Shown in pieces: positions 30,933-50,792 of a stretch of 64,000 bases of DNA. The position numbers were made by a program, and so were the translations under genes. Below the pieces are notes generated by a model, which saw nothing but the letters and a program-made list of their open reading frames with translations, was not told the origin of the DNA and did no database searches. Every line of letters begins with the position of its first letter. The first letter of the stretch is position 1. The DNA comes from Escherichia phage AV109, in the sequence record OR352939.1. One strand, given 5' to 3'.

Positions 30933-30961
30933 ATAATAACATAACCATAGACCTTGTAAAC
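30933..30961 (-). promoter_or_regulatory. T4-type early promoter
   Basis: Minus strand GTTTAC, 17 nt, TATTAT, then SD GGAGGT and ATG at 30905. Confidence 0.5.
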
Positions 30962-30963
30962 AA

Positions 30964-31251
30964 CTAAAAGAAACTTTTTTCGGTATTTTTTCCACTGAAC
31001 CAAACAGACTTCGGGATTTTTTGTAATTTTTCAGATTTAAGTTTCTCTTCCTGTTCTTTCTTATATACACCCTTGTCGTACTGGAGCATCTCTATGGCAT
31101 TCTTTTGCAAACGATCTAAGGTAATTAAGGCTTTAGTTTTTCCTTTCAAGGAAGAGTCTTGGCGAACCTCCTCGCTATATTGCATCGTAGAACTAACCAT
31201 ACGATGAGCATACAGTTCTACTGCGGCTTTAATTTTTTGCATAAAATCCAT
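30964..31251 (-). CDS. hypothetical protein (95 aa)
   Basis: ORF. Confidence 0.4.
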   Translation of the reverse strand: MDFMQKIKAAVELYAHRMVSSTMQYSEEVRQDSSLKGKTKALITLDRLQKNAIEMLQYDKGVYKKEQEEKLKSEKLQKIPKSVWFSGKNTEKSFF

Positions 31252-31427
31252 AACATATCCTCTTTGATTTGTACATCATTATTTTTAAATATTTCTATGC
31301 CCTCAGTAGGTTCCTGGTGTCCTTCTTTGAGGTAAGCCATATGATTATTCATCTTTATGGCTTTTGTTACCTCAGAACTTCCTATAAAGCTTATTTCAGT
31401 AAAGTAACTTCCGAGATTTCTTCCCAA
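31218..31427 (-). CDS. possible small ORF overlapping both neighbours
   Basis: Overlaps flanking ORFs; weak. Confidence 0.25.
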   Translation of the reverse strand: MGRNLGSYFTEISFIGSSEVTKAIKMNNHMAYLKEGHQEPTEGIEIFKNNDVQIKEDMLWILCKKLKPQ

Positions 31428-32371
31428 CCATCTTTATCAGTTGAAATAAAATCTGCTACATAAAGAGCCGTACGTAATGATACATTGCGAAGACGAGATA
31501 CGTTAGCCTTCATCCAGGACAATGCTTTGTACGTTTCTGCATCCGTCAGGCCACGTTTCTGCATCATGTCAGTAGATAATATTACATCTTCAACTCGAAC
31601 CATAATCTCTTCATTAGAGTGTACTCCAAGGTCGAGATACACTGAACGAGATACTAAAGCTTGAAGGTGTGGAGCAAGTTTCGAACCCCGTTCTAACTCT
31701 TTATCGATATCAACGTTTGTAATGAAAACGATAGTACCTTCAAACTCAAATTCTTTATCAATACCCTTATCCTCGAGATAAGATGACGCAGTGCTCCAAC
31801 AAACTTTGCGTTTATCTCCGGTATCTAATGCTGCTTTAAGAAGATTCAAGATGTCCATATCTGAGAATACGTCAACGTCGTCGATTAAGAGAACGCTGTC
31901 TGCATCACGGTTGAGCCAAAGTTGTTCGTAAAGGCCAATACCAGAGATTTTACCATTAATACTTTTGTATTTGATGAAACCATTATCATTAGCATTATTA
32001 AGTGCTTTATCCAGAGAATACGTCTTACCAATACCTGCTGCACCTGAAATAATGAGTGAACGAATTTTGCCATCAATAATGCCATTCGTCATCATGTTCA
32101 TTACTTTAAAGCGTTTGTTGATACGAGTTTTCATATCTTCAGTGCTTTCAGCAACTGCAACTGGTGATGTCTCAACTCCTTCCATTACGATGTCTGATTT
32201 GAAGACCCATACTCCACGTTCAGAACCATCAATCATAACGAAAATTTTACCATCACCTAAGTGGGAACATTCAGGATTAAGCTTTGCCGGGAACCAGGTC
32301 TTTGTGGCAACATAAGAACCAGAGATTTCGTTATTACGATAGATACCTTTTTTGATTTGAACGTTGAACAT
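31391..32371 (-). CDS. P-loop NTPase with an N-terminal extra domain
   Basis: Walker A ISGAAGIGKT, Walker B VLLIDDVD; ATG at 32371 with SD GGAG (track start 32383 is TTG). Confidence 0.65.
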   Translation of the reverse strand: MFNVQIKKGIYRNNEISGSYVATKTWFPAKLNPECSHLGDGKIFVMIDGSERGVWVFKSDIVMEGVETSPVAVAESTEDMKTRINKRFKVMNMMTNGIIDGKIRSLIISGAAGIGKTYSLDKALNNANDNGFIKYKSINGKISGIGLYEQLWLNRDADSVLLIDDVDVFSDMDILNLLKAALDTGDKRKVCWSTASSYLEDKGIDKEFEFEGTIVFITNVDIDKELERGSKLAPHLQALVSRSVYLDLGVHSNEEIMVRVEDVILSTDMMQKRGLTDAETYKALSWMKANVSRLRNVSLRTALYVADFISTDKDGWEEISEVTLLK

Positions 32372-32410
32372 TTTATTCTCCAAATTTACTCATTTCGTTT
32401 CGATAGGTCT

Positions 32411-32439
32411 ATAATAACATGTTTAAAGCAAAAGTAAAC
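32411..32439 (-). promoter_or_regulatory. T4-type early promoter
   Basis: Minus strand GTTTAC, 17 nt, TATTAT, SD GGAG. Confidence 0.5.
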
Positions 32440-32441
32440 AA

Positions 32442-32660
32442 TTATTTGCGACGAGATTTTTTGGTAAGAGGTTGAAAGAACACTGCTTTACCAGCAGGAG
32501 TCAAAGTGACTCGTAATGCATTACCGATTCCCAAGGATGCTTTAACCAGACCTTTAGATTTCAGTTCACCGAATGCTTGACGTTGGTCTGCATCACGAGT
32601 GTTAACCATAAGACCTTTATCACCAGCTTCACGAATCATTTCTAACATTTTGGTTTTCAT
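32442..32660 (-). CDS. hypothetical basic protein (about 72 aa)
   Basis: Start MKTKMLEMI with SD GGAGAA; track ORF extends upstream into the promoter. Confidence 0.45.
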   Translation of the reverse strand: MKTKMLEMIREAGDKGLMVNTRDADQRQAFGELKSKGLVKASLGIGNALRVTLTPAGKAVFFQPLTKKSRRK

Positions 32661-32688
32661 TTTGTTCTCCTCTTGTTTTGATAGGTCT

Positions 32689-32717
32689 ATAATAACATAT
32701 CCTAAAAGCATGTACAC
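32689..32717 (-). promoter_or_regulatory. early promoter variant (GTGTAC -35, TATTAT -10)
   Basis: Same gataggtctataataacat core as the promoters at 30933 and 32411. Confidence 0.4.
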
Positions 32718-32763
32718 TACTTTTTAAAAATATTTGACCCCCTAAAGGGCCCGAAGGCCCTTA

Positions 32764-33753
32764 TCATTTATAGTATGAATTGTGGTTTTCTAAGTAGACT
32801 TGCTCAAGAAAGTCATCCCAGAAACTCATATCTACTTTTTGCTGCATACCATTCTTTGCGGCTTGTTCTGCCGCATGTTCAACTTGGTCAACGATATCTT
32901 CTAGGAATTCCTGTACGGTTTTAAACGTATGTTTACCAAGCTTAACATCGAGAATAAATGGAGCATCCTGAAGCGGGTAAACCAGGTCGCCAGTTTTGTA
33001 AATTTCTAAGAGCTGAAGTCCACCACGGCATGCATGACTCAATGCTTTCCAATCAATACCTTCATTGGCTTCTGCCTTACGAGCACGTTCACCATAGTTC
33101 TCTTCAAGTTTAACCAGGATGGCATTGAACTCTTTGTTAGTTAACGTATCTTGGAATTTACGGTCCAACAGACTATAAAATGTTTGCTTACCTGTTTTCT
33201 CGTTTTCGGTTTCAACCCATGAAGCAAATTCACCTATAGGCAGAACATTCTTCATATGGGATAAACGAATTACTGCACCATTATCAAAGTATTGTCCCCA
33301 TTCATTAGAACGTTTAAGGGCTTGACGAAGAACAGCCAGTCGAGAACCCTTGACACCGTATTTAGAAGCTTGCTTACGGACATACCCTAAATAAGATTTC
33401 ATGTTAGTAGTATAGAAACGAGACCTGTTATCTTGAATATACTTCCATACATCAGGCAAATCAGATTTAACTACTAGACTTTGTGGAGTGTGAAGCATAT
33501 CTAATGCGACGGTTTCACCATCCGCAGCTAGTTTAAAGAAATATTTGAGACTGTACAACTCATGGTCCACGTCGTCTTTTGTGTTCTTAGAAGATGTGTT
33601 ATTCGTGTTCTTGCTCATGTGTTCTTTAACGTTACCGGTCAAAATATCACGAGCATGAGGGACATAAATTTCTTTAAAATCGATGTCAGATTCAGGAGTA
33701 GACGTTCCATAAAGGTGGCTACCAAAGTAAGCCTTAACAATCGTTTTCATCAT
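32764..33753 (-). CDS. nucleotidyltransferase-fold protein (pol-beta superfamily signature)
   Basis: 329 aa; N-terminal YFGSHLYGTSTPESDIDF fits the G[SG]x9-13Dh[DE]h motif; ATGA coupling with upstream gene. Confidence 0.5.
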   Translation of the reverse strand: MMKTIVKAYFGSHLYGTSTPESDIDFKEIYVPHARDILTGNVKEHMSKNTNNTSSKNTKDDVDHELYSLKYFFKLAADGETVALDMLHTPQSLVVKSDLPDVWKYIQDNRSRFYTTNMKSYLGYVRKQASKYGVKGSRLAVLRQALKRSNEWGQYFDNGAVIRLSHMKNVLPIGEFASWVETENEKTGKQTFYSLLDRKFQDTLTNKEFNAILVKLEENYGERARKAEANEGIDWKALSHACRGGLQLLEIYKTGDLVYPLQDAPFILDVKLGKHTFKTVQEFLEDIVDQVEHAAEQAAKNGMQQKVDMSFWDDFLEQVYLENHNSYYK

Positions 33754-34145
33754 TTAGCCTTATATTCAAGAGTAGGACAGACTTTTTCTTTACGAACTTT
33801 AAGGTATTCGCCTATTAATGATTTCTTACGTTCAATAGGCTCCAGTCCATTTTTAATTCGTTCTTGGTTTTGTGCAATGAGCTCAATTTCTTTATAATAT
33901 TTTCTGTCGTTATATTTGTCTAACAACCAAGACGGACCAATTACTAACCCGGTAGCAATAAAAGCCATGACTGCTACACTTAAAATGCCTACACCAATTG
34001 AGGCTGGAACTAATGTCCATAGACTGCTAAAAACAAAGAATTTAGTTAAAATTTCATGGCCAATGATTGTGACTGCTGCTAAAATCGCAAATCCAATAAT
34101 TGAAGCAGCCAATACCGGGATTAACGTTTTCCAAAATAAGCACAC
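33750..34145 (-). CDS. membrane protein (131 aa)
   Basis: Hydrophobic segments IPVLAASIIGFAILAAVTIIG and VPASIGVGILSVAVMAFIATGLVIG. Confidence 0.5.
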   Translation of the reverse strand: MCLFWKTLIPVLAASIIGFAILAAVTIIGHEILTKFFVFSSLWTLVPASIGVGILSVAVMAFIATGLVIGPSWLLDKYNDRKYYKEIELIAQNQERIKNGLEPIERKKSLIGEYLKVRKEKVCPTLEYKAK

Positions 34146-34231
34146 AACGTTTTCGGACGATTCCGTGTACTATTGAACGCGGCATAAATTTTAAAATGCC
34201 AAGAGTTTTCATTGATAATCATAATAATTCC

Positions 34232-34774: not shown

Positions 34775-34874
34775 TTAAAGTTTCAACAAAATTCACCAAA
34801 TCATTCTGACGAGCATCAACCTGATTTCTATAAAAACTAAATAAGATCCATCAATTTATTAGCTTGTTCACGGG

Positions 34875-34985
34875 TCATTTTACCATACTCGCTTCAATAA
34901 GATTCATTACACCATTTACCATGTTATACGTAAACATCGGATAATTGTATTGTACTACAACATAAGCGATAAGCAAAAGTTTCAT
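34875..34985 (-). CDS. possible small ORF (36 aa), not in ORF track
   Basis: ATG at 34985 preceded by SD GGAGAA and an early promoter; MKLLLIAYVVVQYNYPMFTYNMVNGVMNLIEASMVK. Confidence 0.35.
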   Translation of the reverse strand: MKLLLIAYVVVQYNYPMFTYNMVNGVMNLIEASMVK

Positions 34986-35013
34986 TTTGTTCTCCATTTG
35001 TTTTTGTAGGACT

Positions 35014-35043
35014 ACTATAACATAGTCCTACCAAGTTGTAAAC
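35014..35043 (-). promoter_or_regulatory. T4-type early promoter with 9-bp inverted repeat flanking the -10
   Basis: Minus strand GTTTAC, 18 nt, TATAGT; gtaggacta...tagtcctac palindrome. Confidence 0.5.
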
Positions 35044-35252
35044 TACCGATTGTGTTTTAAATGTTGATAAAGTTCTTCAACTTGTTTAGGATCCAAAACA
35101 ATTAAGTCATTTTCTTGACGAAGATAAATCCATCCCTTATCCCCAGGGCCATTTTTACAAAACATCACCGTCGCCATATCGTCATCTTCAACGCTTTCAG
35201 GTAAAAGTTCAAGTACACCATCTTCGGATTTTCCAGTATAATCGTAAAGCAT
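35043..35252 (-). CDS. hypothetical acidic protein (about 69 aa)
   Basis: Internal Met with SD GAGGA is the likelier start; track ORF extends to 35279. Confidence 0.4.
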   Translation of the reverse strand: MLYDYTGKSEDGVLELLPESVEDDDMATVMFCKNGPGDKGWIYLRQENDLIVLDPKQVEELYQHLKHNR

Positions 35253-35326
35253 AATATCCTCACATAATCTCGTTAACATACATTTGTAATTCGGTGTGCG
35301 TATCAGCCATCTTTTTCATAGCTCTG

Positions 35327-35440
35327 TTAATGTCGATGTCTCCATCTTCGCAACCATGAGCATTTTCCCCAATCGGATACAGCGTTAGCGTACTCTTCAA
35401 TCAAAAACATTAACTTAGAAATTTTTTCTTTACGTGACAT
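35327..35440 (-). CDS. possible small ORF (37 aa), not in ORF track
   Basis: ATG at 35440 with strong SD GAGGAGAA downstream of an early promoter. Confidence 0.35.
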   Translation of the reverse strand: MSRKEKISKLMFLIEEYANAVSDWGKCSWLRRWRHRH

Positions 35441-35467
35441 AACGTTCTCCTCTAGTAAGTAAGGTCT

Positions 35468-35496
35468 ACTATAACACAACCTGAGGAGAAGTAAAC
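35468..35496 (-). promoter_or_regulatory. T4-type early promoter whose spacer carries the complement of the downstream SD
   Basis: Minus strand GTTTAC, TTCTCCTC in spacer, TATAGT, then GAGGAGAA SD. Confidence 0.5.
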
Positions 35497-35505
35497 TGCT
35501 AAATG

Positions 35506-35534
35506 CAAAAAAGCCCCAACCTTTCGGAAGGGGC
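35506..35534 (-). terminator. rho-independent terminator, copy 1 of a repeated GC-hairpin family
   Basis: Minus strand GCCCCTTCC-GAAA-GGTTGGGGC followed by TTTTTTG; immediately after the stop of the 35540 gene. Confidence 0.55.
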
Positions 35535-35539
35535 TTTGA

Positions 35540-36097
35540 TTAGTTTTTGTAATATCGTAAAGGGTTGATATGGAATGAAAGCATTGCGCGTGGAATAGGA
35601 CGACTCAAAAGACTCTTAAGTTTCCAACCACAGTAAACACGCAGATAAAATGTAATACCACCGACCTTAAGATAAGGTATAGCAGCGAATAATCCCCATG
35701 CAGACTCGTTCCAAACTAAAAGATATCCATGATGTGCCGGATCAGGAGATCCAGATTTAGTTTCGGCGTTGCCTTTATAGTGCCATTCTGATGAAGCTTC
35801 GCGACCTAAAACATGATACGAAAAATTATATGCTTTGTTGCGCCATAGCCAAGCTACGCGTTGAGCATATTTACCTATAACAGGAATTTTACGTATTTTA
35901 GACCAACGTTCAACATGGCCGCGGTCACCATCGATAGGATTATCGTAAGTCATCATCCAGTCAAAGCCATAAGGTAGTTTACCGGTTTTTTCACTATGGA
36001 ATGGAACTACAAATGGTGCTAGAATAATTGCTAAAATCGCTGCGATCCAATCTATAGGAACAAGAACAACCCAACTTACATATTTTAAAAATTTCAT
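35540..36097 (-). CDS. membrane-anchored protein (185 aa)
   Basis: N-terminal hydrophobic WVVLVPIDWIAAILAIILAPFVVPF. Confidence 0.5.
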   Translation of the reverse strand: MKFLKYVSWVVLVPIDWIAAILAIILAPFVVPFHSEKTGKLPYGFDWMMTYDNPIDGDRGHVERWSKIRKIPVIGKYAQRVAWLWRNKAYNFSYHVLGREASSEWHYKGNAETKSGSPDPAHHGYLLVWNESAWGLFAAIPYLKVGGITFYLRVYCGWKLKSLLSRPIPRAMLSFHINPLRYYKN

Positions 36098-36129
36098 ATA
36101 TCCTCTCTTAGTTTACAAGGATATTTATA

Positions 36130-36157
36130 CAAAAAGCCCCAACCTTTAGGAAGGGGC
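36130..36157 (-). terminator. rho-independent terminator, copy 2
   Basis: Same gccccaacc...ggaaggggc hairpin plus U-tract, downstream of rI. Confidence 0.55.
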
Positions 36158-36164
36158 TAGTAAA

Positions 36165-36467
36165 TTAGATAGATGTAGGCTCTAATTTTATTTTCATGAA
36201 CTCGGCAAATTGTCTGGCAGTTTTTATGCCTTGTTCATGACATTCAAATGCATCATCACAGGGGCTATTTTTGTAATGCTTTGCCATATACTTATAGAAT
36301 TTTTCAGAATTCTCGACATTTTGAATTTCAAACAAAGTATATACGTTTTTAATCCCTGATTCCATAAAGTTATCAAAATATGGGTCGATATATGCAGTAC
36401 CAACGATAGGAGTTGTTGCTGCAAAAAACCCCAGCATCGCCACAATGGCTATCGCTCTTAAGGCCAT
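36165..36467 (-). CDS. rI: lysis-inhibition regulator RI (antiholin)
   Basis: 100 aa; N-terminal signal-anchor MALRAIAIVAMLGFFA; DPYFDNFMESGIKNVYTLFE resembles T4 RI; SD AGGAGG. Confidence 0.85.
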   Translation of the reverse strand: MALRAIAIVAMLGFFAATTPIVGTAYIDPYFDNFMESGIKNVYTLFEIQNVENSEKFYKYMAKHYKNSPCDDAFECHEQGIKTARQFAEFMKIKLEPTSI

Positions 36468-36479
36468 ATAGGCCTCCTG

Positions 36480-38841: not shown

Positions 38842-39300
38842 CTAGATTTTAATCACTGCTTTAGAAGCTTTTCCTGGTAGTCGTTTACTGTTAATAATAG
38901 CCATTCTACATTGAAGAGTCTTCATTTTGAATGCCGGATTTTCGCGACAAACTGTAAGTCCTAACCAAAGATTTCCGTCAGTTATTTCTAAACGGCCTGG
39001 GCGATATTCGACACCTTCGACAAAATCTTCATCAACATCCGGACGTGCCGGCATTGATAAAAATTCTGCAACTTCTTTAACGTGATTTTTTACTTTATGA
39101 AATAATTCAAAAACGTAATTCTCATCTATTTCTCTCTGGATGGCACGATCTAAGAGATGTTGAGAATACTTGATATGAAAGCCTGGTAGTCCAAGAGACT
39201 TTGCAGCATCTTTTATACCGGCATTTATTTTGCGGAACTCCGTTTCAAAGATTCGACGGAGTTTATTACGGCGGATAAAAACATCCGAATTGATAGTCAT
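38842..39300 (-). CDS. regB: RegB sequence-specific endoribonuclease
   Basis: 152 aa; MTINSDVFIRRNKLRRIFETEFRKINAGIKDAAKSLGLPGFHIKYSQHLLDRAIQREIDENYVFELFHK matches T4 RegB. Confidence 0.92.
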   Translation of the reverse strand: MTINSDVFIRRNKLRRIFETEFRKINAGIKDAAKSLGLPGFHIKYSQHLLDRAIQREIDENYVFELFHKVKNHVKEVAEFLSMPARPDVDEDFVEGVEYRPGRLEITDGNLWLGLTVCRENPAFKMKTLQCRMAIINSKRLPGKASKAVIKI

Positions 39301-39328
39301 TTTGATTTCTCCTCTAGTTGACAGGTCT

Positions 39329-39357
39329 ATAGTAACACAACTAGAGGAGAAGTAAAC
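39329..39357 (-). promoter_or_regulatory. T4-type early promoter for regB with 12-bp inverted repeat spanning spacer and SD
   Basis: Minus strand GTTTAC, TTCTCCTCTAGTTG in spacer, TACTAT, then CAACTAGAGGAGAA. Confidence 0.5.
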
Positions 39358-39361
39358 TACT

Positions 39362-39577
39362 TTATTGATAAAATGGAGTTAAAGCCCAGGATTCTTTAGA
39401 TACTATATTGGCGAAATGCCTCATCTCTTCGATTTGGCGACGACGCTGGTCAGCATAGTCTTCTTCGCCTTCTTCCTTACAGTCTTCAAGGTCTTCTTCA
39501 AGATACTTTAAGTATTCACTACAAATTTTGTTGACCTTTTCTTGGAAGTCCAATAACCCAGTAATAGTAGAAGCCAT
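39362..39577 (-). CDS. hypothetical acidic protein (71 aa)
   Basis: ORF. Confidence 0.4.
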   Translation of the reverse strand: MASTITGLLDFQEKVNKICSEYLKYLEEDLEDCKEEGEEDYADQRRRQIEEMRHFANIVSKESWALTPFYQ

Positions 39578-41270: not shown

Positions 41271-41351
41271 TTAGTTTCTCTTTTAGGTTGGGCCATTCCG
41301 TGGCGCATGAATTGTCCATTTCTGTATTTACCCCTCCAAGTAATTATGAAT

Positions 41352-41381
41352 ATACTATCACAATTCTAGGAGAAAGTAAAC
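41352..41381 (-). promoter_or_regulatory. early-promoter-like element
   Basis: Minus strand GTTTAC, about 18 nt, TAGTAT. Confidence 0.35.
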
Positions 41382-41383
41382 TG

Positions 41384-41686
41384 TTATTTACCTTTAATTA
41401 CTTTAGCTGCTTCGATAGCCGCTTGCTGAAGGTCATCCATAGACATACCGAATTTAGAAGCAAAGTTATCAATTTTCTTTTCGACAGCATTCAAAGGCTT
41501 GGCCTGTTTACCTTCATTAGCGCCAGGAAGAGCGAGAATACGCTCTTTGTCAATATAAAGGCTTACAAGTTTCTTACGGTCTTTATCGGACAAATCATGA
41601 AATGAATGGGCCTTTTTATTTATAGCGGCTTCTAATTTACCTGCACTCACTCGCGCTTCAGTAATAAATTCTTGATATGTTTTCAT
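41384..41686 (-). CDS. internal-protein-like, N-terminal capsid-targeting leader MKTYQEFITEA
   Basis: 100 aa; leader matches the T4 IP capsid-targeting sequence. Confidence 0.6.
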   Translation of the reverse strand: MKTYQEFITEARVSAGKLEAAINKKAHSFHDLSDKDRKKLVSLYIDKERILALPGANEGKQAKPLNAVEKKIDNFASKFGMSMDDLQQAAIEAAKVIKGK

Positions 41687-41727
41687 ATGTTTCCTTTAAA
41701 TGTAAATAGGCCTAAGTATTGGCCTTA

Positions 41728-42306
41728 TTAATTACCACGGGCTGCATTAGCAACGGCATAAGCATACTGAACATTAGCGTCCTTAAACGTACCTTTAGAG
41801 GTATCTATTTCTGCCTTAAAGCCGCCTTTAGTCATAACATCGGCAAATTCTTTACGGAAAGCCATTGCATCAAGACCTTTCCATGACGATTTATGCTTGG
41901 CAAATTCAAGACCGGCGTAGTTGACAGCCTTAGCTAATTTATTATCAATAACCCATTTACCTGCTTTAGGCACAAACTTCGGGCCTTTTTGTTTAGAGAA
42001 CAGTTTTAAATTCCAGCGACGAAGATCACTGTCGGCTTTAACAAAAGCTGCGTCTAAGTTACTAGCAACAACATCTTCAATATGAGCAAATTTAAGACCG
42101 TCAACTTCAATATTTAGATCGTTACGCCAACGAAGTCCTTCCCAAGCGAAGGCTTTAAAATCAGAAGCTTTTGTGGCTAGATATCGTTCAAGTGGAGCAG
42201 TTTTAGGGTCAAAGCCGTTTCCGCCACGATAAGTCCACTCGTCCTTATTAATGCCTTGAGCTTTTCCTGCAAAGGCCTCGGCGATAAATTCTTTATATGT
42301 TTTCAT
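41728..42306 (-). CDS. internal protein, IPIII-like size, leader MKTYKEFIAEA
   Basis: 192 aa; SD AGGAAAC; basic protein. Confidence 0.65.
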   Translation of the reverse strand: MKTYKEFIAEAFAGKAQGINKDEWTYRGGNGFDPKTAPLERYLATKASDFKAFAWEGLRWRNDLNIEVDGLKFAHIEDVVASNLDAAFVKADSDLRRWNLKLFSKQKGPKFVPKAGKWVIDNKLAKAVNYAGLEFAKHKSSWKGLDAMAFRKEFADVMTKGGFKAEIDTSKGTFKDANVQYAYAVANAARGN

Positions 42307-42327
42307 TTTTGTTTCCTTGTTTGTTTT

Positions 42328-42366
42328 GATAGAGTAATTATACCATATTAATACTTAAGCGTAAAC
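42328..42366 (-). promoter_or_regulatory. T4-type early promoter (GTTTAC / TATAAT)
   Basis: Minus strand GTTTAC, 18 nt, TATAAT, SD AGGAAAC. Confidence 0.5.
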
Positions 42367-42369
42367 AAT

Positions 42370-42630
42370 TTAAGCTTTACCGCCAGAAATAATTCCGAAG
42401 TTGTTAAAATCGTACCCAATATCGTCAACATCTACTTTAGGACTTACTACAACATAAGCAATTTCACTACGTTTTGCATAGGTGTTGATTTCTTTACCAT
42501 CGCCACCTAAGAAAGAATACCCATTACGTTTTAATGAGCCAAAGTCTTCGGCATCACCAATGAAAGCTTTAACTTTAAATTTAGGACCTTTGGCATCTGC
42601 TTCAGCGATAAATTCTTGATACATTTTCAT
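42370..42630 (-). CDS. internal-protein-like, leader MKMYQEFIAEA
   Basis: 86 aa. Confidence 0.6.
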   Translation of the reverse strand: MKMYQEFIAEADAKGPKFKVKAFIGDAEDFGSLKRNGYSFLGGDGKEINTYAKRSEIAYVVVSPKVDVDDIGYDFNNFGIISGGKA

Positions 42631-42636
42631 TTTTCC

Positions 42637-43050
42637 TTAGTAAATTGATTTACCATAGTATTTGTACCAAGTCGGACGTTGAGCAATTTTTTCATCTAAG
42701 CGTGCTTGACTTATCGCAATGGACGCTTCAGACGGGACGTAATTATTACGAAATTCTATAGGAATGTCGGAAATATCCTGGACAGTCGTGTCCTTGATTT
42801 TGAAACCACGTTTCAAGCATTCAGCGATTAGTTCGATTTGACGTAAACGTAAAAATTCGAGTTTGTCGTAAAAGAATGTTACGTGACCTGTGCCTAAGAT
42901 AAATGTTGGAGAGATTTTAAAATCCTTTACACGTTTACCGTTTTGAACATGTTTACGGACTGCACCAAATACGCGTGGTAATTCACGATACTCAGCCATA
43001 AGATGTTGGTCGGTCAGTTCAGAAACAAGTGTTAAATTGATACGGGTCAT
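42637..43050 (-). CDS. denV: endonuclease V (pyrimidine-dimer DNA glycosylase/AP lyase)
   Basis: [41 protein letters not shown] matches T4 DenV; ATG at 43050 with SD GGAGGAA (track start 43062 is TTG). Confidence 0.96.
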
Positions 43051-43077
43051 AATTTCCTCCAAGTAGTTGATGAATGT

Positions 43078-43107
43078 ATAGTATCAAAGTCCTTGGAGGA
43101 AGTAAAC
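43078..43107 (-). promoter_or_regulatory. T4-type early promoter with 10-bp SD/anti-SD inverted repeat
   Basis: Minus strand GTTTAC, TTCCTCCAAG in spacer, TACTAT, then CTTGGAGGAA SD for denV. Confidence 0.5.
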
Positions 43108-43108
43108 A

Positions 43109-43390
43109 CTATTTTTCTGAAGCGCCTGAAATATATTTTTCAAGACGTTGTTTCATTAGCGAGCCGTTCTTAGCGATTTCTTCCGGTTTATCGCACATAC
43201 GTAACAAGGCTTCAAGCTTAGCGATATCGCTGGTACGTTCAAATTTGCGAGTATCTATCTTACTAGCAAGTTCAGAAATACGTGCTAATAGACTTTCAGC
43301 TTCAACCAAAGCTGCACCTAGCTTAGTTGCAAATGTGTCAGTAGCTTCATTAAGAATAGATTCTGATAAAAATTCATTGTATGTTTTCAT
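43109..43390 (-). CDS. internal-protein-like (IPII-like position), leader [11 protein letters not shown]
   Basis: Start at internal Met of track ORF 43109..43405. Confidence 0.6.
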
Positions 43391-43875
43391 ATATACGCTT
43401 TCCAAGTTCCTGTTTTAAATGTTGAGATTACGCGTTTCGCGCGATTAGGTGTCTGACGATACCATTTAGATTGGGCTAGATTTACTGCCGCTTCGTCCCA
43501 ACGTTTCTGTTGAAGCATACGAAGAGAATTAGTAAAACCGGCGACGCCTGCTACACCCATTTGGAAGACCATATTGACCAATGCACATCGACGAACCGCA
43601 TCTAAAGAATCATATACCGGTTTAAGTTTAGCATTACCCAAGATTCCGCGAACGGCTTTATCAACGTCTTCATTAAATAGCTTTTCAGCCTCATCGAGGG
43701 TAATTGTACCGTTGCATTTACGTCCGATCATTCTGTCAAGTTCAGCTTTAGCTACGGCTAAAGACGGGTTCTTTGTTACTAAATGGCCTATGCCAATCGT
43801 CCAAAAGCCTTCAGTGTCTTTGTATAAAGTTAGTCTAAGACCTTCGTCATTACGAAGCATTTCAAATATATTCAT
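43387..43875 (-). CDS. e: lysozyme (endolysin)
   Basis: [59 protein letters not shown] matches T4 lysozyme; track ORF has 4 extra N-terminal codons. Confidence 0.97.
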
Positions 43876-45758: not shown

Positions 45759-45759
45759 A

Positions 45760-46065
45760 TTATTTTCCTCGGCATTCTTTAATGAAATTTTCTAGATTGG
45801 TAGATTCAATAGCTTTTTTACGAGCTTCTGCATGTTCTTCTTCGGACAATTTACATTTATAATTGACCCAGACATTATGGTCGAAACTAGTCGTGGCATA
45901 TAATAACAATGCTCCAACGAATAGCAAAAACGGTGATAAGAATACAAAACCAGGAACACCATCCATACTGTAAGCCTTTTGTAATACTGCAACAGAAAGA
46001 GCTGCGTAAAAAGGTGATGCAAATATTGTTAAAAGACCAATTCGGTTGGTTTCGCCTAATTTCAT
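45760..46065 (-). CDS. membrane protein (101 aa)
   Basis: Hydrophobic segments; SD GAGGAG. Confidence 0.5.
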   Translation of the reverse strand: MKLGETNRIGLLTIFASPFYAALSVAVLQKAYSMDGVPGFVFLSPFLLFVGALLLYATTSFDHNVWVNYKCKLSEEEHAEARKKAIESTNLENFIKECRGK

Positions 46066-46093
46066 AATATTCTCCTCATGTTTTAATAGGACT

Positions 46094-46123
46094 ACTATAA
46101 CATAATCCTATAATTATGTAAAC
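46094..46123 (-). promoter_or_regulatory. T4-type early promoter with ataggacta palindrome
   Basis: Minus strand GTTTAC, 18 nt, TATAGT. Confidence 0.5.
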
Positions 46124-46135
46124 AGTTTTGCGAAA

Positions 46136-47092
46136 TTATTTGAAAGGTTTTACCATATGAAAATTTTCTTTAAACCGTTTGATGTAATCATTTTTGCCGA
46201 GCTTATGATACATAGCCACTACTTCATAATAGTTCTCGTATGCGTACTCACGGAACCAACCGGAGGTGATGCTTGTGCAGACTTTTTCTAATGCCATCAT
46301 GAAACTGGCTTCAGGGTTAATTTTAAAGTCATTAGGAATTTGAGAACGTTCTAATGCTAGTACACATGATTCTTCATATACACCAGCCAGTTTAATCATT
46401 TCGGGTAACGATTCGAACTTCTCGCGTGAGGTCATGACTTCAGAACCGTCTTTCATATAAAATGTATACGCTGGACGGTCTGTTAGTGCAATGGCTTCAT
46501 GAATAGTATCATGGTCATATGTATAGATGTCATCTTTAAAGAACGCACTTTTAGAAGTGTCAAGAACTGGGTGAGCATAGTTCAAGGTTTCTTTCTGGCG
46601 TTTCAGCATAATTTCAGTAAGTTCATCGTTCAGTGTAACACCTTTACCACGAAGATACTGAATATGGTTCATAGTCTTTAAAAAGAATGGATTATTTTTC
46701 TTGAAACGATGAGACATCTTAATTGCAAGACCTATCTCAGGAGTTGCCCAGTAAAACCCGTTCAAACGGTCTTTAGACAAATTTTTCTTGGCGTATTTTA
46801 AAAGGTCATAAGAAGACGTGAAATCTTCAGGAGTGAGTTCACCGACTAATTCACGGACATTAGTGATTGCCGGAACAATATATGCTTCAAAATGAGTTTC
46901 GCGTCCATTATGGAAGCATTTGAAAACTTGGACATCAGGGTTATCTTGGTGAACATATACACCCATCATTTGATTTTTGAATGCATTCCAAGAACCTTGG
47001 TCCGCAATAAAGTCCCAATCGCTATTTTTGATAGCGCTAGAATCAATAAGACCATGATAGTGAAGTGCACGAGAACCAATAACTAACATCAT
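46136..47092 (-). CDS. hypothetical protein with N-terminal nucleotidyltransferase-like signature (318 aa)
   Basis: VIGSRALHYHGLIDSSAIKNSDWDFI fits the GS...DxD pattern; weak. Confidence 0.4.
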   Translation of the reverse strand: MMLVIGSRALHYHGLIDSSAIKNSDWDFIADQGSWNAFKNQMMGVYVHQDNPDVQVFKCFHNGRETHFEAYIVPAITNVRELVGELTPEDFTSSYDLLKYAKKNLSKDRLNGFYWATPEIGLAIKMSHRFKKNNPFFLKTMNHIQYLRGKGVTLNDELTEIMLKRQKETLNYAHPVLDTSKSAFFKDDIYTYDHDTIHEAIALTDRPAYTFYMKDGSEVMTSREKFESLPEMIKLAGVYEESCVLALERSQIPNDFKINPEASFMMALEKVCTSITSGWFREYAYENYYEVVAMYHKLGKNDYIKRFKENFHMVKPFK

Positions 47093-47120
47093 AATATTTT
47101 CCTCGGATTAATTCATTAAC

Positions 47121-47360
47121 TTAAATTTCACGACATGCGATATTATATTCGTCCCAGAGGTCATCGTGTGAAGCCTCTACCAATGGAACGATTGTACCGT
47201 TTATGTCTTCATTATAAGGGCAAATTGTACAGTGCGCATCTTCGAATCGGATGCCTTTGTGTTCAGATTTTTTATAACGCATATCGAATATCTTTGCAAA
47301 CTTTTCACGAGTAATGGTTTTAGCAACCACTTTGGTTCCGATACTTTCGTAATAAATCAT
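47121..47360 (-). CDS. hypothetical protein (about 79 aa)
   Basis: Second ATG with SD GGAG is the likely start; track ORF starts at 47372. Confidence 0.4.
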   Translation of the reverse strand: MIYYESIGTKVVAKTITREKFAKIFDMRYKKSEHKGIRFEDAHCTICPYNEDINGTIVPLVEASHDDLWDEYNIACREI

Positions 47361-47388
47361 TGTGGACTCCATTTGTTTTGATAGGACT

Positions 47389-47418
47389 ACTGTAACATAG
47401 CCCTATCTTGTTGTAAAC
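47389..47418 (-). promoter_or_regulatory. T4-type early promoter
   Basis: Minus strand GTTTAC, 18 nt, TACAGT; ataggactactgtaacatagccctat core. Confidence 0.45.
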
Positions 47419-47422
47419 TGTT

Positions 47423-47620
47423 TTAGCAAGAATAACTAGATGATACCCAGCCTTGAACAGTGATACTATTGTGGGATAATGAGATCGCGTCCTGGAGATT
47501 CAGACCTGCGTTATCTTCAATCCATAATGTAACTTCTTCGCGTTCTTCTGTTGCAATTTGGAACAGGTTTTCCAGAGCAGCTACTGCCGTACGTACAGCA
47601 CAATCTAATTCACGAGACAT
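47423..47620 (-). CDS. small protein, member 1 of a tandem paralog trio with C-terminal GxWVxSSxxC tail
   Basis: 65 aa ending VQGWVSSSYSC. Confidence 0.5.
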   Translation of the reverse strand: MSRELDCAVRTAVAALENLFQIATEEREEVTLWIEDNAGLNLQDAISLSHNSITVQGWVSSSYSC

Positions 47621-47629
47621 ATGGTTTCC

Positions 47630-47902
47630 TTAGCAAGTGTGAGAAGATGCGACCCAACCGCCATCTTCAAGGCTCAGGTTGTAGTCGTATTGGTAAACGT
47701 CAGCCCATTCAGCCTGGCCGTTTTTTGTACAACGTTCAAGATCGGCTTTAAGATGTCCGGGTGAATGATAGGTTCCACCCATACCATAAGCTGGATACAA
47801 GTCAAATGTTGTGTTTTGTTTATCAGCAATTTCTTTGGCAGCCTCAATAGCTGCATAGATTTTTGCTACAGCTTCAGCCAGTTCGGTTTGTTCTTTAGAC
47901 AT
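47630..47902 (-). CDS. small protein, member 2 of the tandem trio
   Basis: 90 aa ending DGGWVASSHTC; stop followed by AAGGAAACC SD of next gene. Confidence 0.5.
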   Translation of the reverse strand: MSKEQTELAEAVAKIYAAIEAAKEIADKQNTTFDLYPAYGMGGTYHSPGHLKADLERCTKNGQAEWADVYQYDYNLSLEDGGWVASSHTC

Positions 47903-47911
47903 AACTATTCC

Positions 47912-48223
47912 TTAGCACAACGCAGAAGACGAAACCCAAGCACCATCTTTCTCTTCTACCCTTGATTTATCCCAAGAAATACTAATATATGATTCGCCAT
48001 CAATAGAAGTCGCCGGGTTTTTCTCTACTGTAAGACCTTCACTTTCCAGCCATTCAATAGTATTTGCGCATAAATCTGAAGAACACCTCATCGGAAACCG
48101 GCAAGATTTTTCACCTTTAGATGCTGCATCGTACATCTTTTCCAAAATACGCTTTTGCACGTTTTTAAAAATAGTTTCAGCAGATTCTTCAGATTTTTTA
48201 TTCAGTTCAGTGTAAAGACTCAT
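47912..48223 (-). CDS. small protein, member 3 of the tandem trio
   Basis: 103 aa ending DGAWVSSSALC; SD AGAGGAAAA. Confidence 0.5.
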   Translation of the reverse strand: MSLYTELNKKSEESAETIFKNVQKRILEKMYDAASKGEKSCRFPMRCSSDLCANTIEWLESEGLTVEKNPATSIDGESYISISWDKSRVEEKDGAWVSSSALC

Positions 48224-48251
48224 AACATTTTCCTCTATGGTTGATAAGTCT

Positions 48252-48280
48252 ATAGTATCATGTCCTTAGAAGAAGTAAAC
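48252..48280 (-). promoter_or_regulatory. T4-type early promoter
   Basis: Minus strand GTTTAC, 17 nt, TACTAT, SD AGAGGAAAA, ATG 48223. Confidence 0.5.
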
Positions 48281-48312
48281 ATCTTTATGAAATATTTTTA
48301 TGCCCTAGATAC

Positions 48313-48340
48313 CAAAAGGCCCCAACCATAAGGAAGGGGC
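48313..48340 (-). terminator. rho-independent terminator, copy 3
   Basis: ggccccaacc-ataa-ggaaggggc hairpin with minus-strand U-run, downstream of the 48347 gene. Confidence 0.5.
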
Positions 48341-48346
48341 ATTCTA

Positions 48347-48811
48347 TTATTTAATTTGTTTAGCAGACCAGATACGGTCTTTAATAAGTTTTTGGATATC
48401 TTCAACATACTCAAGGCTATGAGCGTGAGGATTATCTTTGAAGCTATGTGCTCGTGCCAGTTTCTGTCCTTCTGTTTTGATTACTAAAAGCTCTTTAAGA
48501 ATTGCTTCATACTTAGAAATAATTCCTTTGGCGATATTTTTTTCTTGAGCTGCTTTAGGGTCCACTTTTGGCGCAGGTGCTTTACCTGTAGCTTTCTGGA
48601 ACAATTCACCTGATGCAGCTAGGCTTTTAAAAACTCGGCTAACAGTATTAGCATTAGTAAAACCTTCGGCTTTAAAATCTCTAATAAAACGGAAACGTTC
48701 TTCATCAGAGGCGTCTTTGTAAGAATATTTACCTGCTTGAATTGCTGCAATCGCAGCGGCTTTTACATCTGAACTAGATTGTTCAGTCAAAAATTCAGCG
48801 TATGATTTCAT
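48347..48811 (-). CDS. internal-protein-like, leader MKSYAEFLTEQ
   Basis: 154 aa; Ala/Lys-rich. Confidence 0.55.
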   Translation of the reverse strand: MKSYAEFLTEQSSSDVKAAAIAAIQAGKYSYKDASDEERFRFIRDFKAEGFTNANTVSRVFKSLAASGELFQKATGKAPAPKVDPKAAQEKNIAKGIISKYEAILKELLVIKTEGQKLARAHSFKDNPHAHSLEYVEDIQKLIKDRIWSAKQIK

Positions 48812-48854
48812 GTTGCTTTTCCTAAGTTAATTAACTTATCTATTTATTATTATG

Positions 48855-48883
48855 CCAAAAAGCCCCGACCTTTCGGAAGGGGC
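48855..48883 (-). terminator. rho-independent terminator, copy 4, downstream of the tRNA region
   Basis: gccccgacc-tttc-ggaaggggc hairpin with minus-strand U-run. Confidence 0.55.
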
Positions 48884-48894
48884 TAAGCCTTGCG

Positions 48895-49010
48895 GCAACC
48901 TTGTCGGGGTTCCACCTGCTAAGGCAAGTGTTTGTACGAAACGCCGGGATTCGAACCAAGATAAAGGAGTTAACAGCTCCCAGTAATAACCTTTATACGA
49001 TGCACCATTT
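48895..49010 (-). other. tRNA-like remnant or small stable RNA candidate adjacent to the tRNA
   Basis: Minus strand has canonical T-loop GGTTCGAATCC and an anticodon-like stem-loop GGGAG-CTGTTAA-CTCCT, but I could not fold a clean acceptor/D/T cloverleaf. Confidence 0.25.
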
Positions 49011-49013
49011 GTT

Positions 49014-49088
49014 TGGTGGCCCTGGCTGGTTTCGATCCAGCTACCTATCAGTTATGAGCTGACAGCTCTCCCATTGAGCTACAGGGCC
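49014..49088 (-). tRNA. tRNA with CAT anticodon (Met or lysidine-type Ile)
   Basis: Hand-folded cloverleaf: 7-bp acceptor GGCCCTG/CAGGGCC, D-stem GCTC/GAGC, anticodon stem GTCAG/CTGAT with loop CTCATAA, T-stem GCTGG/CCAGC, encoded CCA. Confidence 0.85.
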
Positions 49089-49184
49089 TAAATAACTTTC
49101 TATTATGAAAGGCACTTGAGGGAGCACCTTTGGTAATAGAGGGTAGATTAATAATAACACATAATTCTTAAAGCAAATTACGTT

Positions 49185-49475
49185 TTACCGTACCATATTA
49201 ATGTAGTTATATTCAATGCAACGTAATTTCAAAGGGTTCTTGAAAATATCATATTCAAGAGGGCCTTTTTCTGTTTCAATAAAGAAATCAAAGTTAACTG
49301 TGTTAAATTTAACGTCTTCACAGAGTAATTTAACTTGTGAAGATGAACGGTCGATATAAACCTTTTCAACCTCAAAGATAGTCAGAATACCGTAGTCATT
49401 AACCAGTGCTTTAGCTGCACGTTGGTCGCTTTCATATCCGTTCTCAATGGACGATACTTTAGCATAAAGAATCAT
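49185..49475 (-). CDS. hypothetical protein (96 aa)
   Basis: ORF. Confidence 0.45.
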   Translation of the reverse strand: MILYAKVSSIENGYESDQRAAKALVNDYGILTIFEVEKVYIDRSSSQVKLLCEDVKFNTVNFDFFIETEKGPLEYDIFKNPLKLRCIEYNYINMVR

Positions 49476-49834
49476 GAATGTTCCACCATTTCAAAGGTAT
49501 GAGCATCAACAATATGATACCAGTCAAAATTTTCTTCCGCGTTTTTATAAATTTCGCGAAGAGCTTCAACAGTTTTTCCTGTAGCAACAAGATCGTCAAT
49601 ACCACCAAGAGGATAACAGTAATAACCAGCAAACAGAAGGAAATTAATAGTTTCTGTAGGTTCTGGATGCAGAACACCGTTATCATCTACCACTTCAAAG
49701 AAAGTGTAAGAAGGAGTACAAGTTTTAATCCAAGCCCATGCTTGGGCTGCTGAATCAAATGGTCTGCGTATCAAACGACAATCAGGGTCTTTAGAAGGAT
49801 TTGCGTCAAAATCTGCATATACATGATATTTCAT
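49472..49834 (-). CDS. hypothetical protein (120 aa)
   Basis: ORF; 4-nt overlap downstream. Confidence 0.5.
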   Translation of the reverse strand: MKYHVYADFDANPSKDPDCRLIRRPFDSAAQAWAWIKTCTPSYTFFEVVDDNGVLHPEPTETINFLLFAGYYCYPLGGIDDLVATGKTVEALREIYKNAEENFDWYHIVDAHTFEMVEHS

Positions 49835-50020
49835 TTACTCACCTTTTGCAATTTTATCCATAACGATAGCGATTAAGCCGATTAGAAATGCTACTACCAA
49901 TGAGATAGAATTTTCTGTTGTTGTCAGTAGTCCACAAATGAATCCTACAAACATCGAAAAACTAAAAGCCATTGAAGCAATTACTACAGCAACATTACGA
50001 ATCAGTTCAGCGCGTTTCAT
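49835..50020 (-). CDS. small membrane protein (about 61 aa)
   Basis: Internal Met with SD GGAG; hydrophobic VAVVIASMAFSFSMFVGFICGLL. Confidence 0.45.
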   Translation of the reverse strand: MKRAELIRNVAVVIASMAFSFSMFVGFICGLLTTTENSISLVVAFLIGLIAIVMDKIAKGE

Positions 50021-50057
50021 TTTATTTCTCCATTTACTCATTTGTTTTGATAGGACT

Positions 50058-50087
50058 ACTATAACATATCCCTATAGGCTTGTATAC
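50058..50087 (-). promoter_or_regulatory. early promoter variant (GTATAC -35, TATAGT -10)
   Basis: ataggactactataacatatccctat core. Confidence 0.45.
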
Positions 50088-50089
50088 CT

Positions 50090-50353
50090 TTATTTCAAAT
50101 ATATTGCGTATTTTTTATAGCCACCAGGCTCGTGTCGAAGACCTTTATCATTCGCAAAACGTTGAATGTTATTGAACTGATTTTCATCAAGTTCGGATGT
50201 GTCAAATACGAAAAAGTTTCGTTTGTTACCAAGCGTGATATGCGGAGTTAAGTCAATATTATACAAATTAAGAATATCAGCAATAACCTGATTGACCGCT
50301 TTGTTAATTTTCACACCAGATGATTCTGAGATGAATTCGTTGAAAGTTTTCAT
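50090..50353 (-). CDS. internal-protein-like, leader MKTFNEFISES
   Basis: Start at internal Met of track ORF 50090..50365. Confidence 0.55.
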   Translation of the reverse strand: MKTFNEFISESSGVKINKAVNQVIADILNLYNIDLTPHITLGNKRNFFVFDTSELDENQFNNIQRFANDKGLRHEPGGYKKYAIYLK

Positions 50354-50385
50354 TTTAGGTTCCATTTGGTTGTTTTGATAGGACT

Positions 50386-50415
50386 ACTATAACATAGTCC
50401 TATCGTGTTGTAAAT
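50386..50415 (-). promoter_or_regulatory. early promoter (ATTTAC -35, TATAGT -10) with ataggacta palindrome
   Basis: ataggactactataacatagtcctat core. Confidence 0.45.
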
Positions 50416-50726
50416 TATTTTATGCCTTTAGAAGAAATGGTATTTTGGCGTTTAACCCCTGTTTGTGAAAAATCGTGGTTATCGATTTGGTCGACTCGCA
50501 TAACACCAAATGCAGATTTAATTTTAGCCTTTGAACCTTTTTTGATACTAATTATCATATAAGTATCATTTTTCTTATATTCGAAATTTGTTACTTCAAC
50601 GCCTTGATTAGAAATTGACTTAATAATAGCATTAGCGTATTCATCATCTAACGGACCGGTGGTGTTAATAATAAAATTTTTATCGGCTTTAGTAGCTTCA
50701 GCGATAAACTCTTGATAAGTTTTCAT
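50415..50726 (-). CDS. internal protein (IPI-like position), leader MKTYQEFIAEA
   Basis: 103 aa; located just before 57B as ipI is in T4. Confidence 0.6.
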   Translation of the reverse strand: MKTYQEFIAEATKADKNFIINTTGPLDDEYANAIIKSISNQGVEVTNFEYKKNDTYMIISIKKGSKAKIKSAFGVMRVDQIDNHDFSQTGVKRQNTISSKGIK

Positions 50727-50763
50727 TTGTTTTTTCCGTTTGGTTTGTGATTTGATATGATGA

Positions 50764-50792
50764 TAGTATCACACCATCATCCTTATGTAAAC
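50764..50792 (-). promoter_or_regulatory. T4-type early promoter
   Basis: Minus strand GTTTAC, about 18 nt, TACTAT. Confidence 0.45.

Follow-up and report, generated by a model that had tools for sequence, protein, structure and literature searches.

Does the palindrome around the putative early promoters of a T4-like phage represent one shared signal, or does each promoter carry its own? The question arises in a 64,000-nucleotide window of Escherichia phage AV109 (OR352939.1), in which a promoter-like cassette is repeated on the minus strand between positions 30933 and 50792. Fifteen copies lie within 20 kb (the nrdC-tk-regB-e-ip region) ahead of small accessory or ORFan genes, each ending in a Shine-Dalgarno (SD) sequence and an ATG. 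A first-pass annotation read these copies as early promoters with a palindrome around the -10 box, and proposed that some could hide the SD in read-through transcripts. The complementarity is found here to be promoter-specific and not a shared consensus, and in one class of cassettes it extends to the SD.

Promoter-specific complementarity

To assess complementarity, the duplex energy of each spacer was obtained against all downstream segments (-10 to ATG), its own and those of the other cassettes, and own pairings were compared with permuted ones. In 13 of the 19 cassettes of the window, the spacer is complementary to the sequence downstream of its own -10. Own pairings average -12.0 kcal/mol, a value never attained in 20000 permutations, against -8.2 kcal/mol for permuted ones. 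The resulting hairpins have energies of -12 to -22 kcal/mol, with z of -4 to -7.4 against shuffled sequence. Their 3' arm either begins at the last base of the -10, as in the ATAGGACTA/TAGTCCTAT type, or spans the SD. Arm sequences vary among the cassettes of the window and include AGGACTA/TAGTCCT, AGGTCTAT/ATAGACCT, ATGATGGT/ATCATCAT, TGAGAGCA/TGCTCTCA and the SD-containing arms. The palindrome reported around the -10 is thereby borne out by permutation tests and shuffled folds, with the added detail that the last T of the -10 is also the first base of the 3' arm.

The same pattern is found in T4-like viral contigs, where a cassette finder applied to 42 tk-centred loci returned 197 gene-strand and 4 opposite-strand matches. 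For 129 non-redundant cassettes taken from these loci, own pairings are again stronger than permuted ones (z = -16), and energies of -14 kcal/mol or lower occur in 27% of own pairings versus 1.8% of mismatched ones. An enlarged set of 164 non-redundant cassettes contains an ungapped repeat of at least 8 bp in 26.8% of cases, versus 2.0% of mismatched pairings; 44 repeats are of the -10-flanking kind and 17 of the SD-including kind. Cassettes of T4 itself have the same arrangement with unrelated arms, such as GATGAGGTA/TACCTCATC, the 14-bp TCCTAGAATTGTGA/TCACAATTCTAGGA and the 12-bp GTTGACAAGATT/AATCTTGTCAAC, in addition to an anti-SD pairing at regB. The T4 orthologous genes regB, denV and nrdC.8 and the ipIII-type leader have cassettes at the equivalent place, although the nrdC.8 promoter is of the SD-arm type in T4 and of the -10-flanking type in the window.

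Apart from their arms, the cassettes form a consensus family. The strict pattern GTTTAC-N16-19-TATWRT has nine matches, all on the minus strand, where 0.3 are expected. A looser scan followed by inspection yields the 15 intergenic minus-strand elements between 30933 and 50792, and four extra cassettes lie beyond this region (-35 at 28340, 22356, 21229 and 19102). The order of parts is an A/T-rich UP-like stretch (52-88% A+T over the 25 nt upstream of the -35), GTTTAC, a spacer of 17-18 nt, TGn, TAnnnT, a short A/C-rich leader, the SD and the ATG. Within the region, GTTTAC is exact in 12 of the 15 elements and differs by one base in the remaining three (ATTTAC, GTATAC, GTGTAC). None of the 15 lacks the extended -10 TGn, which 17 of all 19 cassettes possess. 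The -10 boxes of these 15 are TATAGT or TATTAT in eight, and otherwise TACTAT (four), TACAGT, TATAAT or TAGTAT. In the sigma-70 register the boxes read TTTACA-N16/17-TAnnnT, and all 15 have the form of T4-type early promoters.

The first-pass annotation had counted at least 14 minus-strand copies of GTTTAC, 17-18 nt and TATAGT or TATTAT, all described as near-identical. The number stands, with 15 found, but only eight of them have those -10 boxes and three -35 boxes deviate. Near-identity is restricted to five or six ATAGGACTA-type copies (76-90% identity over 51 nt), and the remaining cassettes share the consensus only. Within this subset the 26-mer ATAGGACTACTATAACATAGTCCTAT has five occurrences at no more than two mismatches, one of them exact, against none expected.

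In T4, transcription from early promoters starts about 7 nt after the -10. By orthology to the T4 regB promoter, which is what this expectation draws on, the cassettes would start transcription at the same distance, immediately after infection and without phage protein synthesis. The architecture of T4 early promoters agrees with this assignment, as they have GTTTAC at the -35, a TGn-extended -10 and an A/T-rich UP region (Hinton 2010; PMC2988021). In RB69, for which 57 early promoters were predicted, C is found at -3 to -1 (Nolan et al., 2006; PMC1524935), and the window cassettes are likewise C-rich there. They also occupy orthologous positions ahead of regB, denV, nrdC and internal-protein genes, and a typical early promoter is reported for T4 regB (PMC3014915). 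The same kind of cassette thus precedes T4 orthologues, in agreement with the earlier early-promoter reading. Descriptions of T4 and RB69 early promoters refer to 'additional regions of consensus' without describing a promoter-specific dyad (PMC2988021; PMC1524935), and the promoter-by-promoter complementarity is an addition of this analysis.

The stem-loop has a precedent in the PeSL ('promoter-early stem-loop') cassettes of phages RB49 and phi1, which are clustered in hyperplastic regions and recombine with each other to form mini-circles (Arbiol et al., 2010; PMC2839356). PeSLs were later extended to T4/PST and KVP40/nt-1, with the T4/PST consensus TTTACW-N17-TAYWAT and stems of the form AGNA-loop-TCNT (Comeau et al., 2014; PMC4122927). 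Their stem-loops lie mostly between the -35 and -10 or overlap the -10 (PMC2839356; PMC4122927). The window cassettes have the same order of parts (A/T-rich stretch, sigma-70-type early promoter, stem-loop, SD and ATG). They also resemble PeSLs in occurring in many copies in hyperplastic regions ahead of small accessory open reading frames (ORFs), at insertion, deletion and replacement junctions of close relatives. AGGACTA/TAGTCCT fits both the T4/PST stem and the T4/PST consensus. In contrast, the published PST stems are just upstream of the promoter according to a figure legend, whereas most window stems contain the -10. The elements are very probably early promoters that depend on sigma-70 and that this T4-like phage arranges in PeSL cassettes. 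The element, its palindrome and its role in recombination are already known under that name, and the window adds another member; no description of PeSLs in Mosigvirus (RB69-like) phages was found in the literature searched.

Shine-Dalgarno arms and read-through RNA

In every repeat-bearing cassette, the 5' arm ends before the predicted start. Consequently, the hairpin can form only in RNA begun upstream (read-through) or in single-stranded DNA. For the SD-arm cassettes, namely regB (39357), denV (43107), 35496, 48280 and 22356, SD sequestration with the start between the arms is predicted. The three spacers cited earlier as complements of the downstream SD (35468, 39329, 43078) are all real, with arms of 12, 14 and 10 bp, respectively. 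Folding of read-through and promoter-initiated RNA, the comparison that had been suggested, predicts a less accessible SD in the former for four cassettes. The predicted probability that the SD is unpaired is 0.10 versus 0.62 for denV, 0.21 versus 0.72 for regB, 0.16 versus 0.60 for 35496 and 0.21 versus 0.56 for 48280, a 3- to 6-fold drop.

The strongest evidence in this analysis comes from regB, whose upstream regions were gathered from viral and metagenomic contigs of ten lineages. A spacer-SD hairpin of -18 to -23 kcal/mol is present in seven of the ten. Its distal stem differs by lineage (TAGTTG/CAACTA, TGACTG/CAGTTA, TTTATG/CATAAA, CTGTAAG/CTTACAG, TGTAG/CTACA, TCTCTG/CAGAGA), and the own leader is the best partner of each spacer (permutation p < 2e-5). 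Such lineage-specific stems are compensatory changes, which argues for selection on the pairing. Counting covarying columns in a MAFFT alignment of the regB promoters was abandoned because the stems had shifted between lineages and left paired positions in different columns; duplex energies with own and permuted partners were used instead. The denV arms also differ, being TCTCCTGTAG/CTACAGGAGA in T4 and TTCCTCCAAG/CTTGGAGGAA in the window. Homologues of the gene downstream of cassette 46123 were found at two near-identical loci only, too few for covariation.

These observations bear on the possibility that the repeats are functionless by-products of template switching or gene conversion among cassettes, with only the promoter under selection. 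Such an origin would fit the many cassettes that have no inverted repeat, the change of type between orthologous promoters seen at nrdC.8, and the demonstrably recombinogenic nature of the cassettes. Nevertheless, it is improbable given that the regB stem is retained in seven lineages via compensatory changes on both arms. In addition, repeats are 13-fold enriched over mismatched pairings in the set of 164 cassettes, and unrelated arm sequences recur at the same geometric position.

A terminator scan found no intrinsic terminator between cassette 41381 and regB, so that regB is also expected on read-through RNA. In the SD-arm cassettes the SD would be hidden in this mRNA, and translation would proceed mainly from own-promoter transcripts, while the early promoters are active. 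We lean towards such insulation from read-through for regB, denV, 35496, 48280 and 22356, as suggested by folding models and, for regB, by covariation. The occlusion in read-through RNA only that the first-pass annotation proposed is therefore retained as a prediction, consistent with the position of the 5' arm upstream of the start, with unpaired probabilities of 0.10-0.21 versus 0.56-0.72, and with the changes at regB. With a hairpin that is both promoter-specific and covarying, many T4-like early genes look insulated from read-through.

Hairpins that sequester the SD and have an internal promoter are known for e, soc, 49, I-TevI, segB and mobE (PMC3014915; PMC2988022), which according to Edgell et al. 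'are all late genes' (PMC2988022). As in the window, the hairpin of the long transcript sequesters the SD, and a promoter in the 5' arm or loop gives rise to own transcripts that lack the 5' arm and can be translated. The known internal promoters, however, are late (gp55, TATAAATA) and give late-only translation, whereas those of the window are of the early sigma-70 type. The predicted gate would accordingly open immediately after infection and close at early-promoter shut-off. Tentatively, the SD-arm cassettes could constitute an 'immediate-early only' translational gate, absent from the reviews consulted on T4. If so, regB and denV would carry an e/soc-type gate run by an early promoter, and the pulse-like expression of regB would be explained without a further factor. 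The PeSL papers describe the stem-loop as a terminator or attenuator and make no mention of translation or SD pairing, while this subclass pairs its spacer with the SD and covaries. SD occlusion gated by an early rather than a late promoter is undescribed in the literature examined and possibly new, though it could already be mentioned in the T4 genome review of 2003 or the promoter paper of 1989.

The classical late version, with a late promoter inside the hairpin as in T4 e and soc, occurs nearby, ahead of rI (36165-36467). At 36090-36135 (-), the late-promoter motif TATAAATA (36129) precedes ATATCCT...AGGATAT, a sequence capable of pairing with the SD of rI; the fold is weak (-7.4 kcal/mol, z -1.8).

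Hairpins that flank the -10

The second class of hairpins has stems of 8-12 bp and loops of 6-8 nt that hold the -10, and leaves the SD untouched. In read-through RNA, such a hairpin could mark the end of the upstream cistron and serve for attenuation, or for stability or processing of the 3' end, a possible but doubtful role.

In the PeSL papers the stem-loops are labelled terminators, which would be rho-independent and stop upstream transcription just before each promoter. In support of this label, one RB49-type stem-loop reduced downstream lacZ as strongly as rrnB T1 (PMC2839356), and a GC-rich hairpin with a T-run, of which the region has four copies, stands immediately ahead of cassettes 35496 and 48280. 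Attenuation or termination by the stem-loop, like mini-circle formation, has been demonstrated only for RB49 and phi1 (PMC2839356). The -10- or SD-containing hairpins of the window, in contrast, are followed by CAAAACAA-like or coding sequence. A terminator scan for a GC-rich stem and U-run returned none of them, of either class, and the hairpins that truly resemble terminators form distinct elements ahead of the -35. As they have no U-run, the -10-flanking hairpins are not classical intrinsic terminators, and it is quite unlikely that the stem-loops act in this way.

Alternatively, the -10 dyad could act in DNA, either by serving a dimeric phage repressor as operator or by forming a cruciform that a structure-specific protein recognises (e.g., endonuclease VII), with a role in early shut-off or recombination. 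The dyad overlaps the -10 and the start site, five or six window copies have nearly the same arms, and mismatch counts within the stems do not favour RNA. Moreover, the mechanism of T4 early-promoter shut-off is not understood according to reviews (PMC3014915; PMC2988021), and the PeSL authors speculated on a DNA-binding recombination protein (PMC2839356). Yet the arms are completely different between promoters of one phage and between phages, which rules out a single sequence-specific repressor. Several stems hold G.U pairs, which are mismatches in DNA, and the 3' arm of the SD-arm class is an RNA signal. Stems of 8-14 bp with loops of 6-12 nt (17-28 nt in the SD-arm class) are also poor cruciform formers. 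A DNA-level element is therefore very unlikely. Given the varying arms, recognition in DNA would have to depend on structure, through extrusion of a hairpin or cruciform or through a phage protein specific for structure. It is highly improbable that the -10-flanking dyads are recognised in this way and that early promoters are thereby switched off a few minutes after infection; were it true, it would provide a handle on early-promoter shut-off in T4, and the same structure could be an entry point for cassette recombination. A chance origin of cassettes and inverted repeats is rejected by the motif excess, the permutation tests and the shuffled folds.

Several points weigh against reading the cassettes as early promoters with hairpins that function in read-through RNA. 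A notable inverted repeat is absent in six of the 19 window cassettes and in about 60% of those across T4-like contigs, and with so many cassettes lacking it the hairpin must be dispensable for promoter function. Stem mismatches show no clear preference for G.U over A.C, which would have pointed to selection on RNA rather than DNA (12 to 5 in the first set; 11 to 7 in the enlarged set, p = 0.48). The -10-flanking hairpins are without a U-run, and the 'terminator' label of the PeSL papers misfits them as intrinsic terminators. Promoter activity and start sites in this phage are read from the sequence; no usable T4 start-site or 3'-end RNA-seq maps were found in the literature search, and the T4 RefSeq record has no promoter features in its annotation. 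Finally, 15 of about 52 gene boundaries carry a cassette, so that about four of the recombination events described below would be expected at cassettes, where seven are seen; since insertions and deletions fall at gene boundaries anyway, this enrichment is modest. Current understanding is not overturned by these cassettes, and the finding is real and mostly ordinary. Its modest interest rests on the covariation evidence for early-promoter-gated SD occlusion and on the role of the -10-flanking dyads.

Recombination and gene setting

The earlier suggestion that the repeats serve as recombination substrates finds support in close relatives. Positions 29.5-52.5 kb of the window were compared with phages AV118, AV116, ESh27 and NHEP29. 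The comparison yielded 11 distinct insertions, deletions or replacements, of which seven end, on at least one side, no more than about 30 bp from a cassette. For instance, NHEP29 has an extra 66-codon ORF between two cassettes, exactly where the window has the single cassette 46123. Up to and including its -35, the latter agrees with the upstream cassette of NHEP29, and from its -10 onwards with the downstream cassette. In another case, a replacement (50075-50704) extends from one cassette to the repeated internal-protein N-terminal coding sequence beside the next cassette.

The junctions also hold two other repeat families, a terminator hairpin in four copies and the internal-protein N-terminal repeat. 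Together, as the comparison with relatives shows, the cassettes, terminator hairpins and N-terminal repeats provide short homologies for the gain, loss and swap of small accessory genes. The PeSL model of modular gene shuffling thereby gains an example from Mosigvirus.

The terminator-like hairpin AGCCCCTTCCGAAAGGTTGGGGCTTTTT has copies at 35503-35535, 36126-36158, 48309-48341 and 48852-48884 (-), with 79-94% identity to the reference copy and a GC-rich stem followed by a U-run. Two copies lie directly upstream of cassettes (35496 and 48280). AV118 and AV116 are without a 594-bp segment holding the gene at 35540-36097, and the junction is a 29-bp overlap between two copies of this hairpin. The second family is a block of 41-71 nt (41657-41697, 42277-42317, 42601-42641, 43361-43401 and 50697-50737; also 50322-50392) at the beginning of several small genes, where it takes in SD and ATG and encodes the first ~10 residues (MKTY(Q/K)EFIAEA-like). 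The block resembles the N-terminal targeting sequence common to T4-type internal head proteins. In relatives, 587 bp are deleted at 41696/42284, with an overlap of 35 bp in this repeat.

Table 1. Minus-strand cassettes of the window. Predicted starts are about 7 nt after the -10; arms are given as 5' arm + 3' arm, energies in kcal/mol.
Cassette	Span	-35	-10	Predicted start	ATG	Arms and remarks
nrdC.8 homologue	30903..30986 (-)	30961-30956	TATTAT 30938-30933	~30926	30905	AGGTCTAT 30954-30947 + ATAGACCT 30934-30927, around -10; RNA fold -13.4, z -4.2
32439	32369..32464 (-)	32439-32434	TATTAT 32416-32411	~32404	32371	inverted repeat not significant in spacer-downstream pairing
32717	32658..32742 (-)	GTGTAC 32717-32712	TATTAT 32694-32689	~32682	32660	weak inverted repeat only; GC-rich hairpin then T-run just upstream (32751-32736)
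35043	34983..35068 (-)	35043-35038	TATAGT 35019-35014	~35007	34985 (SD-preceded)	TTGGTAGGACTA 35034-35023 + TAGTCCTACAAA 35014-35003, around -10; fold -15.2, z -4.0; outer stem pair G-C, A-T in other copies
35496	35438..35535 (-)	35496-35491	TATAGT 35473-35468	~35461	35440	TTCTCCTCAGGT 35490-35479 + ACTAGAGGAGAA 35456-35445, SD-including; 8-bp core extending to 12; terminator hairpin repeat 35535-35503 directly precedes
regB, 39357	39298..39382 (-)	39357-39352	TACTAT 39334-39329	~39322	39300	TTCTCCTCTAGTTG 39351-39338 + CAACTAGAGGAGAA 39320-39307, SD-including, 14 bp perfect; -21.6, z -4.3
41381, ipIII-leader type (T4)	41317..41406 (-)	41381-41376	TAGTAT 41357-41352	~41345	uncertain: 41319 opens short ORF only; annotated gene start 41270	AATTGTGA 41365-41358 + TCATAATT 41349-41342; additional outer CTCC/GGAG pairing
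42366, ahead of internal-protein-like gene	42304..42391 (-)	42366-42361	TATAAT 42342-42337	~42330	42306	inverted repeat not significant in spacer-downstream pairing
denV, 43107	43048..43132 (-)	43107-43102	TACTAT 43083-43078	~43071	43050	TTCCTCCAAG 43101-43092 + CTTGGAGGAA 43063-43054, SD-including, 10 bp perfect; -17.8, z -4.8
46123	46063..46148 (-)	46123-46118	TATAGT 46099-46094	~46087	46065	ATAGGATTA 46111-46103 + TAGTCCTAT 46094-46086; one U.G pair
47418	47358..47443 (-)	47418-47413	TACAGT 47394-47389	~47382	47360	GATAGGGCTA 47407-47398 + TAGTCCTATC 47389-47380; one G.U pair
48280	48221..48341 (-)	48280-48275	TACTAT 48257-48252	~48245	48223 (annotated)	TTCTTCTAAGG 48274-48264 + CCATAGAGGAA 48240-48230, SD-including; terminator hairpin repeat 48341-48309 precedes
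50087	50018..50112 (-)	GTATAC 50087-50082	TATAGT 50063-50058	~50051	50020 (SD-preceded; annotated 50041)	ATAGGGATA 50075-50067 + TAGTCCTAT 50058-50050, imperfect
50415	50351..50440 (-)	ATTTAC 50415-50410	TATAGT 50391-50386	~50379	50353	GATAGGACTA 50404-50395 + TAGTCCTATC 50386-50377, 10 bp perfect; fold -16.6, z -7.4
50792, ahead of internal-protein-like gene (N-terminus MKTYQEFIAEA)	50724..50817 (-)	50792-50787	TACTAT 50768-50763	~50756	50726	ATGATGGT 50780-50773 + ATCATCAT 50764-50757
22356, 21229 and 19102	19046..22381 (-)					22356: TCCTCGATAG + CTATAGAGGA, SD-including; 21229: TGAGAGCA + TGCTCTCA, -10-flanking; 19102: anti-SD CTCCTT between -10 and predicted start
28340						inverted repeat absent in spacer-downstream pairing

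Bases 30000-52000 have 100% identity to Escherichia phage AV114 (OR352944.1; Straboviridae, Tevenvirinae, Mosigvirus; T4-like). Every gene in this stretch is on the minus strand, and the gene order is that of the T4 nrdC.x - rI - tk - vs - regB - denV - e - nudE - tRNA - internal-protein - 57B - gene 1 region. For annotation, the cassettes provide 19 predicted early transcription units in the window, and they suggest that several deposited starts are a few codons early. The deposited starts at 34997 and 50041 have no SD, while the in-frame ATGs at 34985 and 50020 (4 and 7 codons downstream, respectively) are preceded by a normally spaced GGAG, which makes it probable that the annotated starts lie too far upstream. 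Downstream of cassette 35496, the SD-preceded ATG at 35440 opens an unannotated ORF of only 37 codons (35327-35440). The deposited coding sequence at 35260-35400 is in a different frame, and in relatives a single 59-codon gene is annotated; the discrepancy at 35260-35440 may be a frameshift or an annotation problem.

Five nrdC.4-nrdC.11-like genes at 29320-33753 are named 'thioredoxin' in the deposited record, a label that probably derives from the T4 locus names and says nothing about function. The record also has a tRNA-Asn at 48936-49007 beside a tRNA-Met at 49017-49088. ARAGORN and Rfam recovered the tRNA-Met only, and tRNA was the sole Rfam match at the gathering threshold; relatives carry a tRNA-Arg in the area of the tRNA-Asn. 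Upstream of the tRNA gene, positions 49151-49177 (-) contain a MotA-box-like middle-promoter motif, TTTGCTTTA-N12-TATTAT, which fits the habitual position of middle promoters ahead of tRNA genes in T4.

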